Below are positions 2,292-48,866 of a DNA stretch of 64,000 nucleotides, piece by piece. Position 1 is the first letter of the stretch, and each line of letters opens with the position of its first letter. Origin of the DNA: a virus. The notes beneath the pieces were generated by a model, which had not been told where the DNA came from, made no database searches, and saw nothing but the letters and a program-made list of their open reading frames with translations. The translations under genes and the position numbers were made by a program. The stretch lies in the IMG/VR virus record IMGVR_UViG_3300031688_001339; one strand, written 5' to 3'.

Positions 2292-3023
2292 ATGAATATA
2301 TTATTAACAGGCAGTGAAGGATTTATAGGTAAACACCTTCATAAACATCTAGAAAAAAACAATCACAAAGTAATCCCAATAGACAAACTAACAGGTAACG
2401 ATTTATTAAATTGTGACCTTAAATACGATGTAGATTTAGTCATACACTTGGCTGGTCTATCAGGTGTTAGAGATAGTTTAGATAGACCTACAGAATACTG
2501 GAAAGAAAATGTAATTGCAGGTCAGAGACTATTTGAATACTTTCCAGACACAAGAATACTATATGCAAGTTCATCAACAGCAATAGAACCTTGGCGTAAT
2601 CCTTATGCCATGAGTAAACTATCTTTAGAACAATTAGCACCTAAAAATAGTGTCGGTATGAGATTTACAACTGTATACGGACCAGGCGCTAGAGAACATA
2701 TGTTGATACCAAGAATTTTAAGAAATGATGTACCATTTATTCATACCAATCATACAAGAGACTTTATTCATGTAAATGATATATTAAGTGCGATTGATAC
2801 ATTAATAAAAAGTGATTATCAAGGTGTAACCGATGTTGGTAGAGGAGAGTCTTACAATCTATTAGATTTGATCGCAACATTTAAAATTGATTGTGAAAGA
2901 GCTATAGGTGGTGAGTTTGAGAGATTAGATAACAAAGCAGATAACACAGTATTAAACAAACTAAATTGGTCAACTACAATTGACCTATATGATTATATAA
3001 AGGATAGAAAAAATGTTCAATGA
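2292..3023 (+). CDS. NAD-dependent nucleotide-sugar epimerase/dehydratase
   Basis: TGSEGFIG Rossmann motif, HLAG, YASSS, YAMSK (YxxxK), RFTTVYG, RDFIHVND. Confidence 0.9.
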   Translation: MNILLTGSEGFIGKHLHKHLEKNNHKVIPIDKLTGNDLLNCDLKYDVDLVIHLAGLSGVRDSLDRPTEYWKENVIAGQRLFEYFPDTRILYASSSTAIEPWRNPYAMSKLSLEQLAPKNSVGMRFTTVYGPGAREHMLIPRILRNDVPFIHTNHTRDFIHVNDILSAIDTLIKSDYQGVTDVGRGESYNLLDLIATFKIDCERAIGGEFERLDNKADNTVLNKLNWSTTIDLYDYIKDRKNVQ

Positions 3024-3495
3024 AGAATTATTAAAAAACCATCTAGTTTCAGCACACTTTACTAACAGTGATAGAACATGGATTGAAGTATTAACAAATG
3101 AAGTAAAAGGTAGTTTAACACCTTATCATATTGAGTATGATGAAAATCATTCTCTATACCAATTGTTAAGTAAATTCGTAACTGTAGACCAATTGCATGA
3201 AAATACATATGCTAGAAATGAAGAAGCAAGAAAAGAGTTTGAAAAATCAAGTTTAGAGATAGCTGTTAAAGCAGGTCTTGTACAAACAGACGAAACATCA
3301 CCAACTAGAGTACTTGACTACATCTTTAACAAAAAAGAAAGTGAAGATGAAATGTTTGCTTTGAAGATTGCTTTATTTGAAATTGATGAGATTAAAGATT
3401 CTAAAGATGTCAAAGCTAAGAAAGCAATGAGAAAGAGTAAGACTAAACTTGAACTGTTGAAATCGGCGATTGATCTTTATAGTGCGGAATTATAA
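3013..3495 (+). CDS. Hypothetical protein
   Basis: 160-aa ORF overlapping the epimerase stop. Confidence 0.6.
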   Translation: MFNEELLKNHLVSAHFTNSDRTWIEVLTNEVKGSLTPYHIEYDENHSLYQLLSKFVTVDQLHENTYARNEEARKEFEKSSLEIAVKAGLVQTDETSPTRVLDYIFNKKESEDEMFALKIALFEIDEIKDSKDVKAKKAMRKSKTKLELLKSAIDLYSAEL

Positions 3496-4054
3496 AATCT
3501 GACCACCAACCATTCCAACCTGGTTCTAAAAGATGGTTCATTTGACCTAGAGTACATATACTAAATTCTTTTGGTGGCACTTCATACATATAGTTTTTAA
3601 TAGAAGGACAAACTTTATCATAGTTTTTGTAATCTATTTCTCTATAGTAAAATTCATCACTACCTTTATTGTACTTTTCAAGATACATTTTTTCATTTGA
3701 TTTAAATTTATCCCATATGTGAGAAACATCTCCTGTCCATGAAACAATAGTAGAGTTTAGTGGTGTGTGGGCTTCTTCTCTCCACCACAAATCATTCAAT
3801 AAAGTAAAGTCTTTACGAAATAAATTAGGTAACTCCTTCCATATAATAACATCTAAATCAAAATATAAATTTTCCCCATCACGAAATTTGTCATACATTT
3901 GAAACTTATTGTACCAATTACCGTAAAGGTCCGTTTCTAAAACTTCAAAACTATCATAAGATATTCCAGAGTGGAAATCTATCATATATTTTAAGTTATC
4001 AACATGCCATTGAGTAAACTTATTACCAAATTTACAAGCTATTATTCTTCTCAT
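3443..4054 (-). CDS. GT-A fold glycosyltransferase-like protein
   Basis: WYNKFQMY, YFDLDVII (DxD), LNSTIVSW, GSDEF. Confidence 0.7.
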   Translation of the reverse strand: MRRIIACKFGNKFTQWHVDNLKYMIDFHSGISYDSFEVLETDLYGNWYNKFQMYDKFRDGENLYFDLDVIIWKELPNLFRKDFTLLNDLWWREEAHTPLNSTIVSWTGDVSHIWDKFKSNEKMYLEKYNKGSDEFYYREIDYKNYDKVCPSIKNYMYEVPPKEFSICTLGQMNHLLEPGWNGWWSDFIIPHYKDQSPISTVQV

Positions 4055-4056
4055 TA

Positions 4057-4692
4057 TTAACTCCTAGGAGGCGTTCTATCAGAAACAACATAGGGTATTC
4101 CATCACTGTAATACCTTACATCATCAATGTCACATATTAAATCAAGATTAGCCCATTGTCCTGATTTTTTAATTTTTTGATATAAATTTGCAAAAGATTT
4201 CATATATTTTTCAGGTCCTACACCAGATACTTCATAGTCTCCACACATAGACAATATTATTTGTGTATAGTGACCTTGTTCAGCCCAACGTAAAGCAGAG
4301 TGATCTAATGTTTTAAAAACACAACCTGCTAGGTTTTGACCTGCTACAAGTACGTTTTGAATTTCTTTACCTTTTAATTTGAATTTATTTTTTATACTCA
4401 CAATGGAGTTAAGGTTTCCATTTTTATATTTGCTATCCCATTCTAACCACTGCCAATCATATCTTCCTTTAACTTCTTCGTATAAGTTATTTAGATTGTA
4501 TGCATTAGGAACTTTTTCATCTAAATTTTCAGATACTATACAAAGGTCTTCACAAGGGTGTTCAAACAGTAATCTTTTTAAAGTACTGAAACGAAGATCC
4601 TCTAACTCTTTGTCACGGTTAAGAAACGAATTACCTTCAAAGTCAATTAAGTTTAGAAGTGTGACTTGTTTAAGTTTTTCTGGGTGGTACAT
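4057..4692 (-). CDS. Possible isochorismatase/cysteine-hydrolase fold protein
   Basis: LLNLIDFEG and VLVAGQNLAGCVFKT...AEQGHYTQII resemble the catalytic Asp and GxxxxxCV motifs. Confidence 0.45.
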   Translation of the reverse strand: MYHPEKLKQVTLLNLIDFEGNSFLNRDKELEDLRFSTLKRLLFEHPCEDLCIVSENLDEKVPNAYNLNNLYEEVKGRYDWQWLEWDSKYKNGNLNSIVSIKNKFKLKGKEIQNVLVAGQNLAGCVFKTLDHSALRWAEQGHYTQIILSMCGDYEVSGVGPEKYMKSFANLYQKIKKSGQWANLDLICDIDDVRYYSDGIPYVVSDRTPPRS

Positions 4693-4694
4693 TA

Positions 4695-5450
4695 TTAATC
4701 TTCAAATGCCCATGTCTTCTCGTTACACCAGAAACATTTATTACAATTTTCAAGAGTTTGCGACCAAGCACATGATTTAGTTAAAGGATATAAACTATCC
4801 ATTAGATTGTGTTCTTTAAAAACACCTGCTACGAATTTCTTATCGTTTCTTAAATAAGGTTGATATGTAAGACCACCTTTATCTATTGTGTCCATAACTT
4901 TCAGTTTACTTTCACCAGGATCTCTTTTTCTTTCTGCCACTTTATAAAATCCTCTTTCTTTCTGTACATCTACAGGAGGATTAGAAGTCATAGCCATAAC
5001 AACAGGTGCGTCATACTGTAAAGACATTTTTGATCTTTTATCTCTATTTTGTAAAGCCTTTGAACAACCATTTAATGTTCCCCACATAGAAACTTTTTTA
5101 CCATTTACTATAAGACTACCTTTTGGTGAGGCCATTGCTAGTTTTGCTTTCTCTTGCCAAACTGGATCAGACGTAGATACTGTAAATATCTTTAGATCAT
5201 GTAGTTTAGGAAATTTGTTTTGTAACCATTGATGTACTTCTATAGCACGTTCAGTGTCTATAGGACAGTCTTCATCTTTGGTATGAAAAGGGTACATATC
5301 TATGTTAGGAAAGTTTGTACCTATTAAGTATGTAAGTGATGATGAATCACAGCCACCTGATAATGATACTACAACCTTATCTGGTGGTCCTTCTGGAAAA
5401 TGTTCTTTTCCGAATAAGTCAATAGTTTGATTGCCGTATGTTAGTTCCAT
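4695..5450 (-). CDS. QueC-like PP-loop ATP pyrophosphatase
   Basis: VVSLSGGCDSS PP-loop; C-terminal TKSC...CNKCFWC zinc motif. Confidence 0.75.
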   Translation of the reverse strand: MELTYGNQTIDLFGKEHFPEGPPDKVVVSLSGGCDSSSLTYLIGTNFPNIDMYPFHTKDEDCPIDTERAIEVHQWLQNKFPKLHDLKIFTVSTSDPVWQEKAKLAMASPKGSLIVNGKKVSMWGTLNGCSKALQNRDKRSKMSLQYDAPVVMAMTSNPPVDVQKERGFYKVAERKRDPGESKLKVMDTIDKGGLTYQPYLRNDKKFVAGVFKEHNLMDSLYPLTKSCAWSQTLENCNKCFWCNEKTWAFED

Positions 5451-5459
5451 AATAAATCC

Positions 5460-6746
5460 TTAATAATTAGTTTCTCTTTTTGCCTTTAAATAGTATTCTT
5501 CTAGTTCGGGGTGTGTTGTAAATAAATCGTGTCCTTCTTTTTTACTAAAACCATTTTGGTCTAAATCGTGACAGTAATCAATTGTCTTAATAAATTCTTC
5601 AACATCTTGTTCTTTGTCTAATGCTTTTATAATATTAGGATAGTCTTTATAAAATGGTTTTAACTTCTCTTTAATTTCTTTAGGTAAATTCTTTACTTGT
5701 AATATTCTTGGGTGTTCAATGATATAAAACGTGTGTTGTATACCCATATCTTTTAATAATGCAATTAGTTTATAATTTTCTAGTACACTTAAAAAAGATA
5801 TTACAGAGTGAACATTAACTCTTGCGTTTCTTCTAGCTCTCATTGTTTTCACATTATCCAAAAGTGAAGGCCAATCTGATTTCTTTCTTAAATAGTCATT
5901 ATATTTACCGTAACTATCTATTGATACTTTCATAACAAACTCTTTGAAGTGAGGAAAGTAATCTCTAAAGTTGTAACCGTCCATATCAAATACTGATAAG
6001 TTTGTTTTATAGATTAAGTCTATACCTTTTGAATGACCTGTTGCTACTAATTTGTCTAATAGTTTGTAGTGATTTTTCATAACTAAAGGTTCGCCACCAA
6101 TTAGTTTGATTGATCTAGTATACTTTGCTACGGAGGCAACATCGTCTGTATATTCATCGTCATCATGTTTCATTGTATTCATTCTTTCACCGTCTTTAGG
6201 GTCTAGATCAGGATCATATACTTTTTTTAATTGTTTTAGTGAGAGAGTTCTAGTGTTAGCACTTCTTGGTGTACACATATAACAATCTAGATTACAAGCA
6301 TTACCAAACATCTTCATTTTAATATCTAGTATTCTTTCATCAAATTCTGTAATTGCTCCTTCTTCAACAAACTTTTGAACGGCTCTTAATAATTCTGGTA
6401 CTTTACTATCAAATGTTCCTGCTAGTATTTGTTCAGTATACTTTTGTCTGTCTGAACGACCATATTTTTGTTCTTGTTTCCAACAACCTGTACAATGATG
6501 TCTAAAATATTTTGGATCATAATCTTCTTTTAACATTTCTGCTCTTAATTTATTTTGATAGTCGGAAGTATACCATTCTTTTATTTTAGTATCTTCCATG
6601 TTATGGCCAGTTCTAGCTAGTGCGTCATAACAAGGTGCATATCTGCCACTTAAACTAGAGAATACGTGTGTGAAAGGAAGTGGACAAAACCATAGTTTTT
6701 TATCTTTTAGTTTTTGTTCAAACTCTTTTTTCTGTTGCTCGTTCAT
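5460..6746 (-). CDS. Radical SAM protein with N-terminal twitch/SPASM-like Cys domain
   Basis: CNLDCYMC, GGEPL; N-terminal CPLPF...PC...CTGCW. Confidence 0.85.
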   Translation of the reverse strand: MNEQQKKEFEQKLKDKKLWFCPLPFTHVFSSLSGRYAPCYDALARTGHNMEDTKIKEWYTSDYQNKLRAEMLKEDYDPKYFRHHCTGCWKQEQKYGRSDRQKYTEQILAGTFDSKVPELLRAVQKFVEEGAITEFDERILDIKMKMFGNACNLDCYMCTPRSANTRTLSLKQLKKVYDPDLDPKDGERMNTMKHDDDEYTDDVASVAKYTRSIKLIGGEPLVMKNHYKLLDKLVATGHSKGIDLIYKTNLSVFDMDGYNFRDYFPHFKEFVMKVSIDSYGKYNDYLRKKSDWPSLLDNVKTMRARRNARVNVHSVISFLSVLENYKLIALLKDMGIQHTFYIIEHPRILQVKNLPKEIKEKLKPFYKDYPNIIKALDKEQDVEEFIKTIDYCHDLDQNGFSKKEGHDLFTTHPELEEYYLKAKRETNY

Positions 6747-10554: not shown

Positions 10555-10562
10555 TATTTATA
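10555..10562 (-). promoter_or_regulatory. Internal late promoter TATAAATA
   Basis: Exact consensus on the minus strand upstream of the carbamoyltransferase. Confidence 0.55.
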
Positions 10563-10956
10563 GTCCCATTAAATCTCTTATTTCAGGATCAATCATATCT
10601 CTAGACCACATAGGTGTCATTGTAATTCTGACTTTACATTTTAATCCTGGAATACTTTCAACAGCTTGTCTAACTCCATTAACTATTTCATCTACTGCTG
10701 GACAAAAAGCAGACGTTAAACTCATTAATACAAATACATATCTTTCAGAGGTAACTTTAACGTCATATATAAGTCCAAGTGTATATATGTCTGTATCAAT
10801 TTCAGGATCATAACAAGTTTTAAGTTTCTCTGTAATCTTATTAATAAACTCTAGACGCATTTCTTGGTCGTCTTTAATATCTGATAAAGTAGCGTTAACT
10901 TGTGGGTCAACCGATGGTGTAGGTTGTCTTAAATCTGGATCATCTGTTTCATTCAT
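10558..10956 (-). CDS. sufT: DUF59/SufT (MIP18-like) Fe-S cluster maturation protein
   Basis: YDPEIDTDIYTLGLIY, MSLTSAFCP, PMWSRDMI. Confidence 0.85.
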   Translation of the reverse strand: MNETDDPDLRQPTPSVDPQVNATLSDIKDDQEMRLEFINKITEKLKTCYDPEIDTDIYTLGLIYDVKVTSERYVFVLMSLTSAFCPAVDEIVNGVRQAVESIPGLKCKVRITMTPMWSRDMIDPEIRDLMGL

Positions 10957-10965
10957 AATTTACTC

Positions 10966-11805
10966 CTATACGTTCAATATGTTAGCGTACTTCTCAATAG
11001 GGAAGTGTCCCTTTGGTTGTACATACTCCTTACATGTTACACAATACTTTTCATATTTAAATAACTGGAAATTCATCATCTTGTCTACGTTTTCTTTTGT
11101 CATAGGAAACGATCTAGATAGTTCAAGATTGTTAGCAAACTTTTTACTACAGTGTACTATAGTTTTTGTTTCAAAGTTTATTACTGGTACCATTGGAAAA
11201 GCGGCACACATTTTACGATCTATTTCAGCTGCTTGTTTATGTACTTCTTCTACATCACCTTTAGTTGGTGTTCTACCATTAAATGCTTTGAACATAGTAT
11301 TTTTATGTTCTAGTTTCTTTTTAAATTCTGGATAGTTTGCTATGTATTTAAAGTAATTAGGTGTTTTAAGTACTACGTTATAGTTATTCATATCATTTGG
11401 TTCTAGATAGTCATAGTTACCTAATTTCTTTATCTCATCTGGATAAAAATCTAACGTTAAATGTTCTACATATAAAATATCTGGGTCTTTTAGTATCTCT
11501 GGGTATCTTTTTCTTATAAAAGAGTTAGATAAAACTTGGCAAATAAAATTAGGGTATTCTTTTACCATTGCAATCACTTCACGCAAGTTCTTAATTAGAC
11601 CTGGCTCTCCACCAAGTAAACATATTCTAGTCTTATAATTCTTTAAACTTTCTAACGTTTCTCTTAAAAAATCTAAATCTACTGTTAAGTTTCTCATTTC
11701 TAGAGTATAACTTGTACAGTAGTGACAATCTTTATTACAAGACATTGATAGAAAGAAATCTACAGCTAAGTAGTTCTTTTGTGCATATGTTAAATCAAAT
11801 TTCAT
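10966..11805 (-). CDS. Radical SAM protein with C-terminal Cys-rich auxiliary domain
   Basis: CNKDCHYC, LLGGEPG; C-terminal C...C...CxxC. Confidence 0.8.
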   Translation of the reverse strand: MKFDLTYAQKNYLAVDFFLSMSCNKDCHYCTSYTLEMRNLTVDLDFLRETLESLKNYKTRICLLGGEPGLIKNLREVIAMVKEYPNFICQVLSNSFIRKRYPEILKDPDILYVEHLTLDFYPDEIKKLGNYDYLEPNDMNNYNVVLKTPNYFKYIANYPEFKKKLEHKNTMFKAFNGRTPTKGDVEEVHKQAAEIDRKMCAAFPMVPVINFETKTIVHCSKKFANNLELSRSFPMTKENVDKMMNFQLFKYEKYCVTCKEYVQPKGHFPIEKYANILNV

Positions 11806-12649
11806 TTTTGTCTTCTTCTAACTGTCTATTTATCTCTAGTTCACCACCAAGAGATTTTTCTATTACCATTTCTGTAAACTTTTTATCATCATAATGCCAC
11901 ATATCCTTTGCATTTTTAAATGTCTTACTGTCTGCTGGCTGTTTTGTCACATCAACCCAATTTATCATATCTTCATATGGTGGTTTATGATCATCTTGTA
12001 CTTGATTAGTTCTTTTCATAAAATCCATTCTGTAATAGGAACCATAACCTAGTGTAACTATCATGTGTGGTGTTCTATTAACATAAGTAGTATCTTGCCA
12101 TCTAGATGGATTTTTAGGAAAACAAGAAGTAAATGAAACGTCTATACCTTTTTCTAATGCCAGGCCAACTAATGATTGAGAAAATAATCCACATTCAAAA
12201 GAAATTAAACTGTCTATTTCGCTTAATTCACTTTCAATAGTTTGTTCCGTAAAGTGACTATCATTATCTACACCCCATTGATTAAATTTATTGTTCTCAC
12301 AAAGTCTTGATTCAAATACCAAAACATATGGAGCACTTATTATATGTTGATAGTTTCTATTTACTAAATGTATTGAATCTTTTATCTTACCCTCTCTCAT
12401 GGCCCTATCTTCGGTTGCATGGTGATTAAATACTGCTTTATTCCATATCTTAATTTTTTCTGATTGATTTTCATCTCCTGGACCTATAATGTTTATCTTA
12501 TAAGGCATAAACTGTTGTTTAGAAGGAGTTACTTCATAAGCTTCTTTAATAACAGAGTTTACTTCTTCTTTAGTTGGCCATTTTTCTCTATCGTACAACC
12601 AAACTTGTTGTCTCTTATTAAGTGCTTTGTATACTGGAGATTTAGTCAT
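11795..12649 (-). CDS. Nitroreductase-fold (FMN-binding) protein
   Basis: N-terminal KRQQV, TPSKQQFMPY, SAPYVLV, ALEKGIDVSF, LGYG. Confidence 0.65.
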   Translation of the reverse strand: MTKSPVYKALNKRQQVWLYDREKWPTKEEVNSVIKEAYEVTPSKQQFMPYKINIIGPGDENQSEKIKIWNKAVFNHHATEDRAMREGKIKDSIHLVNRNYQHIISAPYVLVFESRLCENNKFNQWGVDNDSHFTEQTIESELSEIDSLISFECGLFSQSLVGLALEKGIDVSFTSCFPKNPSRWQDTTYVNRTPHMIVTLGYGSYYRMDFMKRTNQVQDDHKPPYEDMINWVDVTKQPADSKTFKNAKDMWHYDDKKFTEMVIEKSLGGELEINRQLEEDKNEI

Positions 12650-14217: not shown

Positions 14218-14506
14218 AGAATAATTTGTTAAATGCTATTTTAAGTTTATGTTTAGGTTCTTCTTTAAAGTTCAAAGGACCGTAATCATATTCAGGCATT
14301 AAGTAAGTCTTCTCAACAATATACTCATACACTGGTTCATGTTCTTTGTCAATTAATGTTTCGTCAAAGATGTCACTAGTACCTAATGCTCTTTTCATCA
14401 TTTGACAAGTTTTAATAAGATTATGATCGGTTATAGGAACAGGATTTTCGTTACTGTCAATATAACTAATTTGATCTAATTCTGTGTTTGCTATTATTTC
14501 AATCAT
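14198..14506 (-). CDS. Hypothetical protein
   Basis: 102-aa ORF overlapping both neighbours in the operon. Confidence 0.55.
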   Translation of the reverse strand: MIEIIANTELDQISYIDSNENPVPITDHNLIKTCQMMKRALGTSDIFDETLIDKEHEPVYEYIVEKTYLMPEYDYGPLNFKEEPKHKLKIAFNKLFYEKINS

Positions 14507-15573
14507 AGGTTATTTAATATTGTATTGCATACATCTTTTACTTCTTCATCTTTCATAAATGGGTGTATTGGTAATGTTAATACAGAGCTACTAACTAGTT
14601 TACTATTTTTACAGTTATCACTTCTATGTTCTATGTTTTTATACATAGGTCTTTCCGAAATAAGTTTTTCATAATGAATATTAGCACCTAGTTTTCCTTT
14701 TATTCTATCTCTTGCCTCATTAGCTTCAACTGGATCTCCTTCATCAAATCTTATAACGTATTTATGATATGTATGATTCAGACCATTTGTTGTTTCTTGT
14801 ACAGCTACATAACCTTTTAGTTCATCATCATATTTTTTTGCTATTATTTGTTTAGCCTCAATATACTGATCTAATTTTTTTAATCTATAATCAATAAATT
14901 TTGCATTAAAGAATAACATTTTAGAATTATATCCTAGTATCTCATGGTTACCGTGTTTTCTTAACTTGATACACATATCAGCATGTTCTTTATTATCTGT
15001 TAATACAATTCCACCACCAGCAATACCACCAATAGTTTTGTTTGCATTAAAACTTATAGTACTAAAATCTCCTTGTGTACCTGCTTTTACACCATTAAGA
15101 CTTGAACCTATGGCCTGAGCTGCGTCTTCTACAAAGTATATATTTTTCTCTTTACAAAATTTTAATATTTCTGCTATATCTGTCATACTGCCAAACAAAT
15201 GTGGATAGATAATTGCTTTTACTTTATCTGAATACATTTTTTTAATACTATCAAGAGTCATATGATAAGAGTATGGGTCTATATCACAAAATACAGGTGT
15301 TGCACCTACCATAGATATACAAGACGCTGTTGATATCCAAGAGAAGTTGGTTGTTATTACTTCATCGCCTGGTTTTATACCTAGACATTTTAGAGAAAAC
15401 ATTAAGGCGTCTGTACCATTTTGACATGCTACGGCATATTTTCTACCTACTATATCTGTAACTGTTTTTTCCAGAAACTCTATGTTTTGTTCCTGATTTT
15501 CTTTCATGCATTCATCAAAGAGTTTAGTATAATTCTCTTTGTCTTCAGCATATTCATATTTCCATGCGTCCAT
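14503..15573 (-). CDS. DegT/DnrJ/EryC1/StrS PLP-dependent sugar aminotransferase
   Basis: NGTDAL, GATPVFCD, EDAAQAIG, SFNANKTIG (catalytic Lys), LTLPIHP. Confidence 0.92.
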   Translation of the reverse strand: MDAWKYEYAEDKENYTKLFDECMKENQEQNIEFLEKTVTDIVGRKYAVACQNGTDALMFSLKCLGIKPGDEVITTNFSWISTASCISMVGATPVFCDIDPYSYHMTLDSIKKMYSDKVKAIIYPHLFGSMTDIAEILKFCKEKNIYFVEDAAQAIGSSLNGVKAGTQGDFSTISFNANKTIGGIAGGGIVLTDNKEHADMCIKLRKHGNHEILGYNSKMLFFNAKFIDYRLKKLDQYIEAKQIIAKKYDDELKGYVAVQETTNGLNHTYHKYVIRFDEGDPVEANEARDRIKGKLGANIHYEKLISERPMYKNIEHRSDNCKNSKLVSSSVLTLPIHPFMKDEEVKDVCNTILNNL

Positions 15574-15938
15574 TATTTCTCCTCTACCATTTTCTTTACT
15601 CCATTTTCATAAACAGTTTCAACCTTTATCTTATCATCTTTAGCCCTTGCTTGGCAATGGTGTAAACAAGTTTGATTGATTTTTTCTAAATTGTCTCCTT
15701 TATCTCTAGCCTGGACTAGATCATCTTCAAAAGCTTGCCATTGTTTAGTGTCTAGTATATTGTCTATACTTTTATAATCTTTAAGTTTACTAATAGAGTA
15801 AATTTCTTTAAATAGTTCACTCTTTGTAGTCTTCGGGTGATCACACCAACAACATGGTAATAAGTGACCTCTATTGTCTATTGCCAAAGGCATTGGTTTC
15901 TCACCATTTATAGGTAAACATTTAGGATTTAATTTCAT
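15573..15938 (-). CDS. Stand-alone SPASM/twitch-like Fe-S protein
   Basis: PKCL...AIDNRGHLLPCCWCD...CLHHC. Confidence 0.7.
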   Translation of the reverse strand: MKLNPKCLPINGEKPMPLAIDNRGHLLPCCWCDHPKTTKSELFKEIYSISKLKDYKSIDNILDTKQWQAFEDDLVQARDKGDNLEKINQTCLHHCQARAKDDKIKVETVYENGVKKMVEEK

Positions 15939-16551
15939 ATACTGCGTTTTTTGATATTAATGCTTTTGTAGGTTTAAGAGGATCATCATTTGTTAACCAT
16001 CTTGATGATTCTGTTAACATAAAATTTATTCCGTTATTATTTGCCATTTTTTTACAAGTCTCAATATCGTTTTCATTATAACTAAATCTAATACATTGCC
16101 ATACAGGTGTACTTAATAAATGTTTAGTCGCCTCTTTCATTATCTCAAACATCTTAACACCATCTTGATTCTTCCTGTATTTATGACTGTCTTTAGGTAG
16201 ACCATCACAGGCGAATATCCATACTGCTTTAGGATTTGCCTGCCAAGATTTAATATACCATGACATAGGTTTAGCTGTAGCTGCATTATGAACAAATACC
16301 TCTGGCACATCTTTTAGTTGAGACATTATATCATTAAATTTAGGGTGATGTACTGGATCCGATAACTGTCCACAAAATGCAACTTCTTTAAAATGTTTTG
16401 CTATCATGTCTATCTCAACAGCGCTTAGATCACGTCCATGGGGTACCAAACCATAGTTGGTAAACGATGTTTGTCTTTGGCAGTTAGGACATTCTAAAGG
16501 ACATCTATGTGTCACATCTAAATTTAATCTACTATTTTTTTTAAATGACAT
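15922..16551 (-). CDS. Short radical SAM core protein
   Basis: HRCPLECPNCQR, FCGQLSDPVHHP, DGLP, YRKNQD. Confidence 0.82.
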   Translation of the reverse strand: MSFKKNSRLNLDVTHRCPLECPNCQRQTSFTNYGLVPHGRDLSAVEIDMIAKHFKEVAFCGQLSDPVHHPKFNDIMSQLKDVPEVFVHNAATAKPMSWYIKSWQANPKAVWIFACDGLPKDSHKYRKNQDGVKMFEIMKEATKHLLSTPVWQCIRFSYNENDIETCKKMANNNGINFMLTESSRWLTNDDPLKPTKALISKNAVYEIKS

Positions 16552-16934
16552 TACTTTGTATCTTTTTTTAATTCTTTTCCGTCTCTATATGTTGTTTCTA
16601 CCTTTATCTTATCTTCCTTTTCTCTTACCTTACAGTGGTGAATACATACACCATTGATCTTATTAAGATTATCTCCTACGTCTCTAGCTCTAACTAAATC
16701 ATTTTCAAATTCTTTCCATTCTGGTTGATCCATTAATTGTTCAACTGTATCAAAATTTTCAAGTTTACTTACATCATATATCTTTTTAAATCTTTCACTA
16801 TTAGTAACTGCCCTTTCGTCACACCAACAACAAGGTAATATGTAACCTCTATTGTTTATTGCCAATGGCATAGATATGTAATTAGGGTCGTCTGGATTAG
16901 GAAGACAACGAGGTCTTAATTTAATATTCTTCAT
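16551..16934 (-). CDS. Stand-alone SPASM/twitch-like Fe-S protein
   Basis: PRCL...AINNRGYILPCCWCD...CIHHC; paralogue of ORF 15573. Confidence 0.7.
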   Translation of the reverse strand: MKNIKLRPRCLPNPDDPNYISMPLAINNRGYILPCCWCDERAVTNSERFKKIYDVSKLENFDTVEQLMDQPEWKEFENDLVRARDVGDNLNKINGVCIHHCKVREKEDKIKVETTYRDGKELKKDTK

Positions 16935-17586
16935 ATTTCCTTCTACCTTCTAATTTATCTTTTAATGTTTGTTTATATTTACCTGTCGGTCTAAATGGAT
17001 CAGGTTTTCCGTCTCTATCTTTCCATCTGGAAGATTGTGTTAGTAGAAAATCTATTCCATTACTATTGGCCATGTTCTTAGCTTCTTCTATATCATTTTC
17101 GTTATAGTTAAATATTATGTATTGCCATATTGGTATTACTTTTAAATGTTTAACAGACTCCTTCATTATCTCAAACATTTTTTCTCCATCTTGGTTTTTT
17201 CTATACTTGTGGCTATCTTTTGGTAAACCATCACACGCAAAAGTCCATAGAGCATTTGGATTTGCTTTCCAAGATTTAATATACCATGCCATAGGTTTTG
17301 CTGTAGAGGCATTGTGTACTAAAACTTCAGGTATTTCAAGATCATGTAGTCTTTGTAGTATTTGAGGAAATTTAGGGTGGTGTATAGGGTCAGATAACTG
17401 ACCACAGAAAGTAAAAGACTTAAAGTGTATTGCTAGTTTTTCTATTTCTATCATTGTCAAGTCACGACCATGAGGTACTTTACCTCTAAATGTAAAAGCA
17501 GTTTGTCTTTGACAATTAGGACATTCAAGAGGACATCTATGGGAAGAGTCTACGTTTATCGTTGTTCTAGTTTTAAAGTATGTCAT
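16921..17586 (-). CDS. Short radical SAM core protein, paralogue of ORF 15922
   Basis: HRCPLECPNCQR, FCGQLSDPIHHP. Confidence 0.82.
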   Translation of the reverse strand: MTYFKTRTTINVDSSHRCPLECPNCQRQTAFTFRGKVPHGRDLTMIEIEKLAIHFKSFTFCGQLSDPIHHPKFPQILQRLHDLEIPEVLVHNASTAKPMAWYIKSWKANPNALWTFACDGLPKDSHKYRKNQDGEKMFEIMKESVKHLKVIPIWQYIIFNYNENDIEEAKNMANSNGIDFLLTQSSRWKDRDGKPDPFRPTGKYKQTLKDKLEGRRKYEEY

Positions 17587-18442
17587 TCATTGCCTTTATA
17601 ATTACTTCTATGTTTGGTCTATTAACTGGATCAGTAAGACAGTTGGCAGGTCTTTTGTAGTAAACAGGTCCTGCGTCTTTAATATTTTTATCTCTTACAT
17701 ATACAAAGTTCATTCCGAAGAAACGACACTCTTGCATTAATCTTGGTGCCGGATCAAATGTATGTTTAGTGTAAACGTAAGTATCAAACATACCTAGTAA
17801 ATTTTTTACAGGTACAAATATGTGATTTAGATTATGATCTATGTACTTATCTTTGTATGCCAATATACCATGATTTTGGTATTTGTGAATATGTTTCTTT
17901 AGTTCAGTGTAATAACTTTCATTTGTACCTAAAAATAGATACTTAAACTTAACATCTTTAACTATAGGTTTATATACACTGTAATTAATAATCTTTTCAA
18001 ATTGTCTACCTATGCCATTAACATATACCTCATGGTCGCATAAGTCAATTACTTTTTCTGGTTTAAAAAATTCTAGTGCTAAAGGATATTCTTTTGGGTG
18101 GTTTTCTGAATATACTGATATAAGAGGTTTCTTAAATAACAAACGTAAAGTTAATTGTGTATCTTTATCATAATCTTTGATACTCTTATATGCTAGAGTT
18201 ATCATACTTCTACCCATAATTAAATTTACATCAGCTTCTTCATAATCAAAATATACATTTTTCATATGTATATATTTTTCTGTTAAAGCTTCAATGTATG
18301 TTTCCTTGGTAAATTTGTAGTGAGGTATAATTATAAGTTTTGCGTTGATACCTAGATCATTTAGATATTGTACTTGTTCAAAGCTATAATGCATTAATCC
18401 GTCACCTGGTTTACTAGTCACCACTATATTCAATCTCATCAT
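17573..18442 (-). CDS. Hypothetical protein, possibly GT-B glycosyltransferase-like
   Basis: KYLFLGT and DPAPRLMQECRFFG resemble the GT-B C-terminal domain; the ATG at 18448 lies within the promoter, so start at 18442 or 18439 is preferred. Confidence 0.45.
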   Translation of the reverse strand: MMRLNIVVTSKPGDGLMHYSFEQVQYLNDLGINAKLIIIPHYKFTKETYIEALTEKYIHMKNVYFDYEEADVNLIMGRSMITLAYKSIKDYDKDTQLTLRLLFKKPLISVYSENHPKEYPLALEFFKPEKVIDLCDHEVYVNGIGRQFEKIINYSVYKPIVKDVKFKYLFLGTNESYYTELKKHIHKYQNHGILAYKDKYIDHNLNHIFVPVKNLLGMFDTYVYTKHTFDPAPRLMQECRFFGMNFVYVRDKNIKDAGPVYYKRPANCLTDPVNRPNIEVIIKAMNDIL

Positions 18443-18447
18443 ACGCA

Positions 18448-18468
18448 TATTTATAACACTTATAAATA
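18448..18468. promoter_or_regulatory. Back-to-back divergent late promoters (18448-18455 minus; 18461-18468 plus)
   Basis: TATTTATAA-CAC-TTATAAATA inverted repeat containing two exact TATAAATA. Confidence 0.8.
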
Positions 18469-45938: not shown

Positions 45939-47273
45939 ATGTATTTATCAGAACAATACGAAAAAAAATGGCAGCCCGTTTTAGAGCATCCTGATTTACC
46001 AAAAATCAGTGACTCTTACAAACGAGCCGTTACTGCTACTGTCTTGGAAAACCAAGAACGTGCAATGAAAGAGGATTCAGCATTCTTAAGCGAAGCTGCT
46101 CCTACGAATAACACTGGTGGAACTTCAAATTGGGATCCAATTTTAATTTCATTAGTAAGAAGAGCTATGCCTAACCTTATCGCTTACGATATCGCTGGTG
46201 TACAACCGATGACTGGTCCAACTGGACTTATTTTCGCAATGAGATCAAGATACACTTCAGCAACTGGCAACGAAGCCATGTTTGATGAAGCTGATACTGA
46301 TTACTCATCTAGAAATGCTGCTGGTACTTCAGCTGCTGGTGACGGCGTTACAGAACACAGAGGAACAAATCCTTCAGTTCTTAACGATAGTCCTGCAGGT
46401 GCTTATACTAGAGGTCAAGGTATGACTACAGCTGCCGCTGAAGCATTAGGCGACGCTGCTGGAAATGCTTTTGCAGAAATGGCTTTCTCAATAGAGAAAA
46501 CAACCGTTACTGCTAGAAGTAGAGCTCTAAAGGCTGAATACACTATGGAACTTGCTCAAGATTTAAAAGCAATCCACGGTCTAGACGCTGAAACAGAACT
46601 TGCAAACATTCTATCTGCTGAGATCCTTGCGGAAATCAACAGAGAAGTTGTAAGAGCTGTTTACATAAACTCTGAAAAGGGTGCTGCTACTAACACAACT
46701 ACTGCTGGTGTCTTTGATTTAGATACTGACTCAAACGGTAGATGGTCTGTTGAGAGATTCAAAGGTCTTATGTTCCAATTGGAAAGAGACGCAAACAGAA
46801 TCGCTCAAAGAACAAGAAGAGGTAAAGGGAACATGATTATTTGTTCTGCTGATGTCGCTTCTGCTCTACAAATGGCCGGTGTTTTAGATTACACACCTGC
46901 TTTAAACAACAATCTAAACGTTGACGACACAGGCAGTACATTTGCTGGTGTATTAAACGGTAGATTTAAAGTATACATTGATCCATACAGTGCAAACTCA
47001 AGCGCTAGCCAATACTACGTTGTTGGTTACAAAGGTACTTCACCTTATGACGCTGGTATGTTCTACTGTCCTTATGTTCCATTACAAATGGTAAGAGCAG
47101 TTGGTCAAGATACTTTCCAACCAAAAATTGGTTTCAAAACTAGATACGGTTTAGTTGCGAATCCTTTTGCGGAAACTGGTGCTGCTTCGGGTGCGGTTAC
47201 AGGAATCACTGATTCAGGTACACCTAACTCAAACAGATACTACCAAAAAGTTAAAGTATCAAACATTATGTAA
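45939..47273 (+). CDS. gp23: Major capsid protein gp23
   Basis: GVQPMTGPTGLIFAMR, LAQDLKAIHGLDAE, FQPKIGFKTRYG. Confidence 0.98.
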   Translation: MYLSEQYEKKWQPVLEHPDLPKISDSYKRAVTATVLENQERAMKEDSAFLSEAAPTNNTGGTSNWDPILISLVRRAMPNLIAYDIAGVQPMTGPTGLIFAMRSRYTSATGNEAMFDEADTDYSSRNAAGTSAAGDGVTEHRGTNPSVLNDSPAGAYTRGQGMTTAAAEALGDAAGNAFAEMAFSIEKTTVTARSRALKAEYTMELAQDLKAIHGLDAETELANILSAEILAEINREVVRAVYINSEKGAATNTTTAGVFDLDTDSNGRWSVERFKGLMFQLERDANRIAQRTRRGKGNMIICSADVASALQMAGVLDYTPALNNNLNVDDTGSTFAGVLNGRFKVYIDPYSANSSASQYYVVGYKGTSPYDAGMFYCPYVPLQMVRAVGQDTFQPKIGFKTRYGLVANPFAETGAASGAVTGITDSGTPNSNRYYQKVKVSNIM

Positions 47274-47456: not shown

Positions 47457-47464
47457 TATAAATA
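47457..47464 (+). promoter_or_regulatory. Late promoter TATAAATA
   Basis: Exact consensus ahead of the 47481-48858 unit. Confidence 0.65.
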
Positions 47465-47678: not shown

Positions 47679-48395
47679 ATGAGTGATAATAAAATTTTTG
47701 AAGGTATGAAATATCGTCATAACCCTAAATATAATAAAAGATTATTTCAGTCTAGCAAAGTAAATTTAGATTTATCTCATAGATGTCCTTTAGAATGTTT
47801 GCGTTGTGCTAGACAAGATAAAGATCAAAACGGAAATTCAATAAAGACTCCAGGTAGAGATATAACAATGGAAGAATTTGATAAGATATCTACTTACTTT
47901 GATAGAATACAATTTTGTGGTCAATATTCAGACCCTATACACCACCCTCATTTTATTGATATGTTAAAGATGATAAAAGAAAAAGGAAAAATAAGTCAAG
48001 TACACAATGCCTCATCATTTAAATCAGATGAATATTTTATAGAAGCTTTTAAGGCAAATCCTGATACACAATGGTGGTTTGGTATAGATGGTCTACCTAA
48101 ACATAGTCATAAGTATAGAAAAAATCAAGACGGAGAAAAACAGTTTAAAAGATTGTTGTTAGCCAAAGAACACTTAAATAAATTACCTATATGGCAAATG
48201 ATACTTTTTAGTTACAATGAAAATGATTTAGATGAGTGTATGAAAATGGCTGATGAAGTCGGTGTAATATTTAATTTAATTAATTCTTCAAGATGGTATA
48301 AAGATGATGGTTCTGATCCTTTAATACCAAAAGGTAAAGAGAAGTTACGTATAGAAGAACAAACATTTAATCCAAAGGTTGCGGTAATGCAATAA
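47679..48395 (+). CDS. Short radical SAM core protein (third paralogue)
   Basis: HRCPLECLRCAR, FCGQYSDPIHHP, DGLP..SHKYRKNQDG. Confidence 0.82.
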   Translation: MSDNKIFEGMKYRHNPKYNKRLFQSSKVNLDLSHRCPLECLRCARQDKDQNGNSIKTPGRDITMEEFDKISTYFDRIQFCGQYSDPIHHPHFIDMLKMIKEKGKISQVHNASSFKSDEYFIEAFKANPDTQWWFGIDGLPKHSHKYRKNQDGEKQFKRLLLAKEHLNKLPIWQMILFSYNENDLDECMKMADEVGVIFNLINSSRWYKDDGSDPLIPKGKEKLRIEEQTFNPKVAVMQ

Positions 48396-48399
48396 ACCT

Positions 48400-48858
48400 A
48401 TGACAATAAAATTTAATTTTCCACATGTAAGTGAATATGATGAACTAGCAAGGGTTCCTAGTAGAACAAATTTGTATGATGAAAATGGTAATATTATAAC
48501 AGATGAACAAAATGGTATCAAGTCAGATATAACTATGAAACCTATGTGTTTTAAAGGTGACATGAATCTTGCTGTAGACAATAGAGGTCGTTTATTACCT
48601 TGTTGTCATTGTGATACAAGAAATATGACAGGCGATAAAGAGTGGACGAAATTGATTGAAAAAAGTAAAATAGAAGACTATAATACGTTAGAAGAAATAA
48701 TAGATAGTGAAGCGTGGAAAGCATTTTATAAATCACTACAACACAATAGAGGTCCTGTGGCCTGCTGGGATACATGTCGTAGTAATAAAAAGAAAAAAGA
48801 CAAACAAGAAATGGTTGTTGCTAAAGGTGGTAAACTAAAAGCATGGGAAAGAAAGTAG
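48400..48858 (+). CDS. Stand-alone SPASM/twitch-like Fe-S protein (third paralogue)
   Basis: PMCF...AVDNRGRLLPCCHCD...CWDTC. Confidence 0.7.
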   Translation: MTIKFNFPHVSEYDELARVPSRTNLYDENGNIITDEQNGIKSDITMKPMCFKGDMNLAVDNRGRLLPCCHCDTRNMTGDKEWTKLIEKSKIEDYNTLEEIIDSEAWKAFYKSLQHNRGPVACWDTCRSNKKKKDKQEMVVAKGGKLKAWERK

Positions 48859-48866
48859 TATAAATA
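48859..48866 (+). promoter_or_regulatory. Late promoter TATAAATA
   Basis: Exact consensus 6 nt before the ATG at 48873. Confidence 0.65.

Follow-up and report, generated by a model that had tools for sequence, protein, structure and literature searches.

Auxiliary iron-sulfur (Fe-S) clusters of radical S-adenosylmethionine (SAM) enzymes are found in SPASM and twitch domains. A SPASM domain has seven to eight cysteines (CX9-15GX4C, a gap, CX2CX5CX3C, a gap and a final C) and two auxiliary clusters, and a twitch domain is a shortened SPASM that has one auxiliary cluster. Both have been described, in about 165,000 sequences, as C-terminal extensions, and the role of the auxiliary clusters is debated (PMC9012708). 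Here we describe a family in which a radical SAM core and a twitch-like domain are encoded by two separate genes, a naturally split form of this much-studied enzyme class. The family is present as three paralogous pairs in the stretch of viral DNA that we analyzed (IMG/VR record IMGVR_UViG_3300031688_001339; 64,000 nucleotides (nt), called the window below), each consisting of a gene for a core of 209-238 amino acids (aa) and, downstream of it, a small Cys-rich open reading frame (ORF) of 121-152 aa. We refer to them as pairs A, B and C. We found no description of a stand-alone or split SPASM or twitch protein in the searchable literature, although its coverage is incomplete and this is weak evidence of novelty; a genomic study of pelagimyophages names radical SAM "cassettes" in passing, without analysis (PMC7029224).

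BtrN, a 2-deoxy-scyllo-inosamine dehydrogenase (PDB 4M7S/4M7T), resembles the proposed make-up of the pairs in combining a radical SAM core with a single-cluster twitch domain, in which a Cys-flanked beta-hairpin is followed by later Cys residues. Unlike the pairs, it is one polypeptide, and the phage domain differs from it in having five invariant cysteines, a CC doublet and a CX3C motif. No sequence similarity between the small ORF and BtrN was detectable in PDB sequence searches. BtrN works with a DegT-family aminotransferase, BtrS/BtrR. A DegT aminotransferase and a radical SAM enzyme also act together on a nucleoside diphosphate (NDP)-sugar in DesI/DesII, a thymidine diphosphate (TDP)-sugar 4-aminotransferase and a radical SAM deaminase, but DesII has no auxiliary cluster. 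BtrN acts on an aminocyclitol or sugar. It catalyzes a two-electron oxidation of DOIA, in which the electron acceptor is proposed to be its auxiliary cluster with four Cys (PMC9012708).

SPASM enzymes such as anSME, PqqE and SuiB (PF13186, TIGR04085) share the C-x(n)-G-x4-C motif with the small ORFs, but they bind two clusters via 7-8 cysteines, have the CX2CX5CX3C block, and have the domain fused to the core. Proteins of the NF033640 (N_Twi_rSAM) family are also fused, and their cores come from a different radical SAM family. PqqD and PqqE provide a precedent for a radical SAM accessory module that some lineages have as a fused domain and others as a free protein, but PqqD is a peptide-binding RRE domain and not an Fe-S protein. 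The nearest homologues of the pairs in cultured phages, other than Pelagibacter phage Mosig (see below), are gp080, gp083 and gp084 of Campylobacter phage CP220, with 30.7% identity by tblastn and 22-26% in our alignment. These three paralogues have the same core, a C-terminal C...G-x4-C...CxxCC domain and multiple tandem copies. They differ from the pairs in being fused (326-342 aa), in having a canonical G-x-x-G/C-E-P, and in their host and gene neighbors.

Three pairs of core and small genes

Pairs A and B are arranged in tandem on the minus strand as four tightly packed ORFs (15573-17586). Core A (221 aa, 16921-17586) overlaps small A (127 aa, 16551-16934) by 14 nt, small A overlaps core B (209 aa, 15922-16551) by 1 nt at a TAATG, and core B overlaps small B (121 aa, 15573-15938) by 17 nt. 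The packing continues on both sides, because the 291-aa gene upstream overlaps core A by 14 nt and small B overlaps the downstream aminotransferase gene by 1 nt. Pair C is on the plus strand, with core C (238 aa, 47679-48395) separated by a 4-nt gap from small C (48400-48858; 152 aa if counted from the first ATG). Amino acid identity is 65-66% between cores A and B and 53-55% between their small ORFs, whereas pair C shares only 44-45% (core) and 34-35% (small ORF) with pair A. Core C is a distant paralogue, with no more than 54% identity to any core from the related loci.

Cores A and B contain the motifs CPLECPNC and FCGQLSDP, which in core C read CPLECLRC and FCGQYSDP. Small A and small B contain NRGxxLPCCWCD and CxHHC, for which small C has PCCHCD and CWDTC. 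An earlier note on this DNA, made by a model from the letters alone, had located the ORFs of both tandem pairs and of the third pair exactly as we find them, and the motifs it quoted (CPLECPNC, GQLSDP, NRGxxLPCCWCD and CxHHC) are all present, with variants in pair C; the coordinates also bear out its report that the junctions differ, with overlaps of 14 and 17 nt in one place and a 4-nt gap in the other.

Small C has a 45-aa N-terminal extension (48400-48534) ahead of the homologous domain, which begins at M46 (48535). Extensions of 20-30 aa occur on small ORFs in other lineages (for example loci L022 and L069) and are unrelated to that of small C. As the tail of core C resembled the head of its small ORF in a MAFFT alignment, we considered a duplication at the pair C junction, and rejected it since the local alignment score was below the mean of shuffled sequences.

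The split form prevails in the family

All of the best 120 of 492 core homologues, which we examined for length, are between 201 and 258 aa long. For the small ORFs, we made an exhaustive search with a profile built from 31 diverse members, which found 439 cluster representatives, and inspected the best 150. About 144 of these are stand-alone small ORFs, 53-182 aa long. Five others among the 150 (P0156, P0191, P0202, P0253 and P0257; 314-349 aa) have the domain C-terminal to a full core, and these fused proteins are collinear with the core and small pairs of the window, with a variable linker at the split point. Fused ORFs of 295-336 aa are also present in IMG/VR contigs. The collinear alignment shows the small ORF to be homologous to the C-terminal auxiliary domain of the fused relatives, detached here from the core, and by the Rosetta-stone argument the fused forms are evidence that the two parts function together as a single enzyme. 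A word-based search for longer proteins with a small ORF inside them found none, which reflects its limited sensitivity, as the profile search did find fusions. One further metagenomic protein, P0235 (352 aa), has the twitch-like domain at its N terminus (residues 2-85), followed by about 260 aa with no Pfam match; it either has a different fusion partner or is an assembly artefact.

In IMG/VR loci, the small ORF is directly downstream of 87 of 98 cores and is fused to none of them. The small ORF can be in either of the alternative frames, and its overlap with the core gene is 1, 4, 8, 11, 14, 17, 19, 20, 23 or 25 nt. Every called small ORF has a nearby ATG, though a few of these starts appear to be internal. 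When we pooled all related loci and classified 111 distinct cores by the position of the small ORF, 86 had the order core-then-small and 13 were flagged as small-then-core (of which we judge about 11 to be genuine and two to be artefacts of tandem arrays); at least one has an inserted gene, four are fused, six are cut by the end of the locus, and one has no partner. At L024:2145-3157, L025:6952-7976, L067:3649-4660 and L078:3643-4702, which are among the loci with the reversed order, the genes abut within 1-4 nt, with either a short overlap or a 1-nt gap, and cores that seemed to be orphans turned out to have a small ORF immediately upstream (in L024, the small ORF is at 2145-2540 and the core at 2540-3157). 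Since the NF033640 proteins have an N-terminal twitch, such a domain is able to precede a core, as it would in these loci. In locus L019 (4001-5754), a gene for a PP-loop protein (4611-5396) is inserted between the core (4001-4627) and the small ORF (5380-5754).

Neither a reversed order nor an inserted gene can be bridged by a frameshift, so frameshifting, whether a sequencing error or programmed, is excluded as a general explanation. Hundreds of homologous pairs exist in uncultured relatives of the phage, and in about 95% of the family members the small ORF is separate, rather than covalently attached to the core as the twitch domain is in twitch enzymes. The closest related record (G001, a 28-kb fragment) has the same two tandem pairs. 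The split is far beyond chance, and it is real and evolutionarily stable rather than a sequencing error. The earlier note had argued against a sequencing frameshift and had proposed a heterodimeric family; the first idea holds and two polypeptides are the best reading of the family, given the variable overlaps in both frames, the reversed and interrupted loci, the independent assemblies, the collinear fused relatives and the dominance of the split form. The fused homologues that it suggested searching for do exist, though they are rare (295-349 aa), and gene pairs in reversed order were found as well.

The gene inserted in L019 codes for a 261-aa PP-loop protein with an SGGxDS motif. In locus L005 the same gene follows the core at 5003-5665, and in the window its homologue is elsewhere, at 4695-5450, with a weak QueC-like match.

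The core is a divergent radical SAM protein

The CX3CX2C motif (C18, C22 and C25 in core A) is invariant in 13 aligned cores and is present in all three cores of the window. An AlphaFold2 model of core A (pLDDT 81.8) shows a partial barrel of six beta/alpha repeats. When searched against the PDB with Foldseek it gave 83 matches at E≤0.001, and all of those listed are radical SAM enzymes, including viperin, BlsE, SkfB, anSME, MoaA, HydE and LipA at E-values of 1e-5 to 1e-6, as well as SuiB. On this basis, with the fold taken from a model, we assign the core to the radical SAM superfamily. Matches of the window cores to Pfam Radical_SAM (PF04055) speak against the assignment, as they score only 14.6, 22.9 (core A) and 25.1 bits (core C), under the gathering score of 29.5; the subfamily is divergent, and the assignment therefore rests on fold and motif. 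The invariant G-Q-x-S-D-P of the cores aligns with the G-x-x-G/C-E-P of the fused CP220 homologues, which is the position of the GGE motif, and it looks like a variant of that motif rather than its loss.

The small protein is twitch-like

Five cysteines are invariant in an alignment of 31-32 diverse small ORFs (C10, C35, C36, C97 and C101 in small A), and a sixth, which makes CCxC, is often replaced by L, M or I. The small ORFs have a C-x(13-27)-G-x4-C hairpin motif and a CX3C, and the SPASM block CX2CX5CX3C is absent from the aligned sequences. The five cysteines and the G-x4-C motif are kept even across small ORFs that are just 30-60% identical to small A. A hairpin flanked by Cys, followed by further Cys to give 3-4 ligands altogether, is the hallmark of a twitch domain, and the small ORFs show this pattern. 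Among 31 small ORFs, 25 match the Pfam SPASM profile (PF13186) at E≤0.1, with a best E-value of 1.7e-6, and one matches TIGR04085. The best NCBIfam match is to NF033640, whose twitch part (profile positions 15-74) matches eight of the 31 as well as the small ORFs of L086 and L067; the scores of small ORFs and fused homologues against this profile (17-28 bits) are far below the cutoff of 170 bits, which applies to the full profile. The AlphaFold2 model of small A (pLDDT 88.6) has short paired strands (residues ~24-33), then helices, and then a C-terminal hairpin. In a full scan of the PDB with VIA-align, the twitch domain of BtrN (residues 162-238) ranked first among 48,161 chains for this model.

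Other results weigh against a twitch domain. The match to BtrN is weak (Z 2.5, with a root-mean-square deviation of 2.7 Å over 76 residues), and a Foldseek search of the PDB with the small A model gave no match at E≤0.001 and, on re-alignment with VIA-align, none at Z≥2. The window's own small ORFs score only 14.2 (small B) to 20.7 bits (small C) against PF13186, under its cutoff of 21.5. With hhalign, the small-ORF profile aligned to the N-terminal-twitch radical SAM protein of the window and to CP220 gp083 only over the GX4C hairpin, at low probability. Searches of PDB sequences with the small-ORF profile and with a fused homologue found nothing relevant, only a chance match to TIM9.

We consider the evidence from sequence for a twitch domain moderate and the evidence from structure weak. 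To judge from its sequence, the small ORF is twitch-like and not a full SPASM, and it probably has one auxiliary cluster. The earlier note's description of it as a SPASM/twitch domain therefore stands for the twitch-like part, on the motif, the five cysteines, the profile matches and the weak BtrN match, and fails for a full SPASM, as there are only five invariant cysteines and no CX2CX5CX3C.

Phylogeny and distribution

We made a maximum-likelihood tree of the core domains, rooted on the fused CP220 proteins. Several fused forms have basal positions and others branch from within groups of split ones. At least five changes between fused and split states are needed; their direction is not settled by the tree, and the basal order is unsure owing to long branches. 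Cores A and B are in sister clades inside a well-supported clade of 20 rows, which indicates that the A/B tandem duplication is older than the separation of many contigs in which both copies survive.

The closest cultured relative, as regards the pair genes, is Pelagibacter phage Mosig EXVC030M (Kyanoviridae), which has one pair, split as well and overlapping by 8 nt; the only annotations are "putative molybdenum cofactor biosynthesis enzyme" for the core and hypothetical protein for the small ORF. Because Mosig is closest and the window has a T4-type major capsid gene (45939-47273), we consider the window to be a genome of the pelagimyophage type, that is, a marine phage of the SAR11 type. 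All of the Atlas neighbors are viral, and 185,579 species genomes yielded no more than 10 loci, mostly on short contigs of metagenome-assembled genomes (MAGs), so by its sequence distribution the family appears to be essentially viral. One of the 10 loci is a split pair (219 aa and 103 aa, with a GTG start and a 4-nt overlap; L086:4956-5923) on a 227-kb contig of a Hyphomicrobiales MAG. It is just 3' of the GMP synthase gene (guaA) and before a membrane-protein gene, in a local dip of G+C content (0.43 compared with about 0.50-0.54). The pair appears to be part of a bacterial chromosome and may have come from a phage, and this suggests that the two genes can move as a unit.

Gene context of the pairs

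Pairs A and B are part of a leftward operon in which the order is a glycosyltransferase (GT)-like gene, core A, small A, core B, small B, and an aminotransferase of the PseC/LegC/DesI type. The GT-like gene (291 aa, 17573-18448, minus strand) has no Pfam match, and the GT1/GT4-like names of its Atlas neighbors are a lead only. The aminotransferase is a DegT/PseC/LegC-type pyridoxal phosphate enzyme (356 aa, 14503-15573, minus strand; PF01041, 7.9e-83) with matches to the NCBIfam PseC and LegC models (~1e-54) that are under the equivalog cutoffs. Beyond it the run continues with a 102-aa ORF, an SGNH-like ORF, two nitroreductase-like genes, another radical SAM gene, a SufT/DUF59 protein, a carbamoyltransferase, a GT8 glycosyltransferase, an N-terminal-twitch radical SAM protein and a PP-loop protein. 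An epimerase/dehydratase gene (2292-3023, plus strand) adjoins this context outside the run. Of 171 related loci, which are not mutually independent, 125 have a relative of the GT-like gene within 4-5 kb of the core homologue, 124 have one of the aminotransferase and 108 have one of the SGNH-like gene.

The consensus sequence of T4-type late promoters, TATAAATA, occurs directly upstream of the leftward operon (18448-18455, minus strand), upstream of the pair C unit (47457-47464, plus strand) and, in a second copy, directly after that unit (48859-48866, plus strand). It occurs 19 times in the window, which is not above chance (14.5 expected), so its position is the sole argument for reading it as a promoter. 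The unit between the two motifs is directly 3' of the major capsid gene and comprises core C, small C and, ahead of them, a 62-aa ORF whose hydrophobic stretch may span a membrane. Neither a homologue of the 62-aa ORF nor a pair located after the capsid gene was found in any of the 171 related loci.

The DUF59/SufT-type protein in the leftward run, which is of a type involved in Fe-S assembly (10558-10956, minus strand; PF01883, 3e-13), has homologues in seven of the 171 loci. One of the nitroreductase-like paralogues (11795-12649, minus strand) matches the C-terminal part of an adenosylcobinamide-phosphate guanylyltransferase model at 3.8e-5, but with 23 bits against a cutoff of 250 this is probably noise. 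The N-terminal-twitch radical SAM protein (5460-6746, minus strand) is a true, full-length member of NF033640 (296.7 bits against a cutoff of 170), and the window thus holds a fused enzyme with the twitch first in addition to three split pairs with the twitch-like ORF last. In locus L077, an NF033640 relative is downstream of the core (3859-5073).

A proposed two-subunit enzyme and its alternatives

From their sequences, we consider it likely that each pair codes for a two-subunit radical SAM and twitch enzyme. The core (~210-240 aa) would form a partial TIM barrel, in which CX3CX2C holds the [4Fe-4S] cluster that cleaves SAM. The small protein (~120 aa) would be a detached auxiliary domain of the twitch type, which in most relatives is a C-terminal extension, and with its five invariant cysteines it probably holds one auxiliary [4Fe-4S] cluster. 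The two proteins would be made separately, mainly via translational coupling at the overlapping stop and start codons, and would form the active enzyme together in a 1:1 ratio. Pairs A and B are old tandem paralogues in what would be a late-transcribed sugar-modification operon. By analogy with BtrN and its DegT-family aminotransferase and with DesI/DesII, and from the gene context, the enzyme may take a hydrogen from a nucleotide-sugar or aminosugar intermediate, with the electron of the radical passing to the auxiliary cluster. We give a place in a sugar pathway about an even chance. The most likely step there would be a BtrN-type oxidation of an alcohol to a ketone, which would feed the aminotransferase, or else a DesII-type step on the product of the aminotransferase; as BtrN-like dehydrogenase chemistry is suggested only by gene context and the weak match to BtrN, we give it clearly less than an even chance.

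If the pairs were single genes, a frameshift in sequencing or assembly, or programmed frameshifting, would produce a fused radical SAM-twitch protein. Pairs A and B do have overlaps of 14 and 17 nt, there are fused homologues of suitable length, and an indel of 1-2 nt would join most of the overlapping pairs, but this does not sit well with overlaps that range from 1 to 25 nt in either alternative frame with an ATG near the start of every called small ORF. Independent assemblies and the cultured phage Mosig show the split too, there is no common slippery site visible at the junctions in the window, and read-through is impossible where the order is reversed or a gene is inserted. We regard this explanation as extremely improbable. 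It is also very unlikely that the small protein, instead of being a subunit, is a precursor on which the core acts as on a substrate, or binds Zn or Fe and has nothing to do with the enzyme. The fused forms put the domain of the small ORF exactly at the position of the auxiliary domain, SPASM and twitch profiles match it family-wide, and an invariant set of five cysteines and G-x4-C at 30-60% identity is typical of a cofactor site and not of a leader-core peptide. What can be said for a substrate is that radical SAM maturases often adjoin small Cys-rich precursors, and that a twitch fold has weak structural support. A different idea is that several cores draw on the small proteins as a shared, exchangeable pool or as ferredoxin-like redox partners that can dissociate. 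In favor of it, the two subunits are not physically joined, a single phage has three small and three core paralogues besides other radical SAM enzymes, and intermolecular electron transfer between radical SAM enzymes has been proposed (PMC10470005). On the other hand, almost all cores are next to a small ORF of their own, even in tandem arrays, and such a 1:1 arrangement is a sign of cognate pairs; the two small ORFs of pairs A and B have also diverged more (53-55% identity) than their cores (65-66%), as expected if each has specialized for its partner. We consider such a pool unlikely, and found nothing in support of the earlier note's suggestion of an exchangeable auxiliary subunit.

A two-subunit enzyme could also modify a peptide or a virion protein, such as a capsid or fibre protein, instead of a sugar. 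Most characterized SPASM enzymes, and some twitch enzymes such as SkfB, are peptide maturases (PMC9012708), which tells against a sugar substrate. The weak NCBIfam matches of the family are to maturases, both loci are behind T4-type late-promoter motifs, and pair C, directly after the major capsid gene, is outside the sugar context altogether, so that a protein substrate is possible for pair C. However, pairs A and B and most homologues are found among genes for a sugar aminotransferase, a GT-like protein, a carbamoyltransferase and an epimerase. We saw no conserved short precursor ORF, and none of the 171 loci contains a homologue of the 62-aa ORF that precedes pair C. For the family as a whole we think a peptide or virion substrate doubtful, though well worth keeping in mind.

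Significance of the split

A large family in which the auxiliary protein is separate but coupled to its core shows that the module can fold and persist alone, and the fused and permuted relatives add weight to this. There is a small chance that the free twitch proteins are mini-ferredoxin-like modules, which dock on several cores or shuttle electrons between them, and that the phage mixes catalytic and redox modules; if so, the fusions, fissions and permutations of gene order would be the evolutionary trace of this modularity. For the two-subunit enzyme that we favor, the natural split would make it possible to express and reconstitute the radical SAM cluster apart from the auxiliary cluster and to give each its own isotope label, something that needs special tricks in fused enzymes (PMC10337720). 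If the pairs do act on sugars, the family would mark a conserved, late-expressed sugar-modification cassette in pelagimyophages, whose hosts are very abundant ocean bacteria, and the product of this cassette may be targeted to the virion or to the host envelope.

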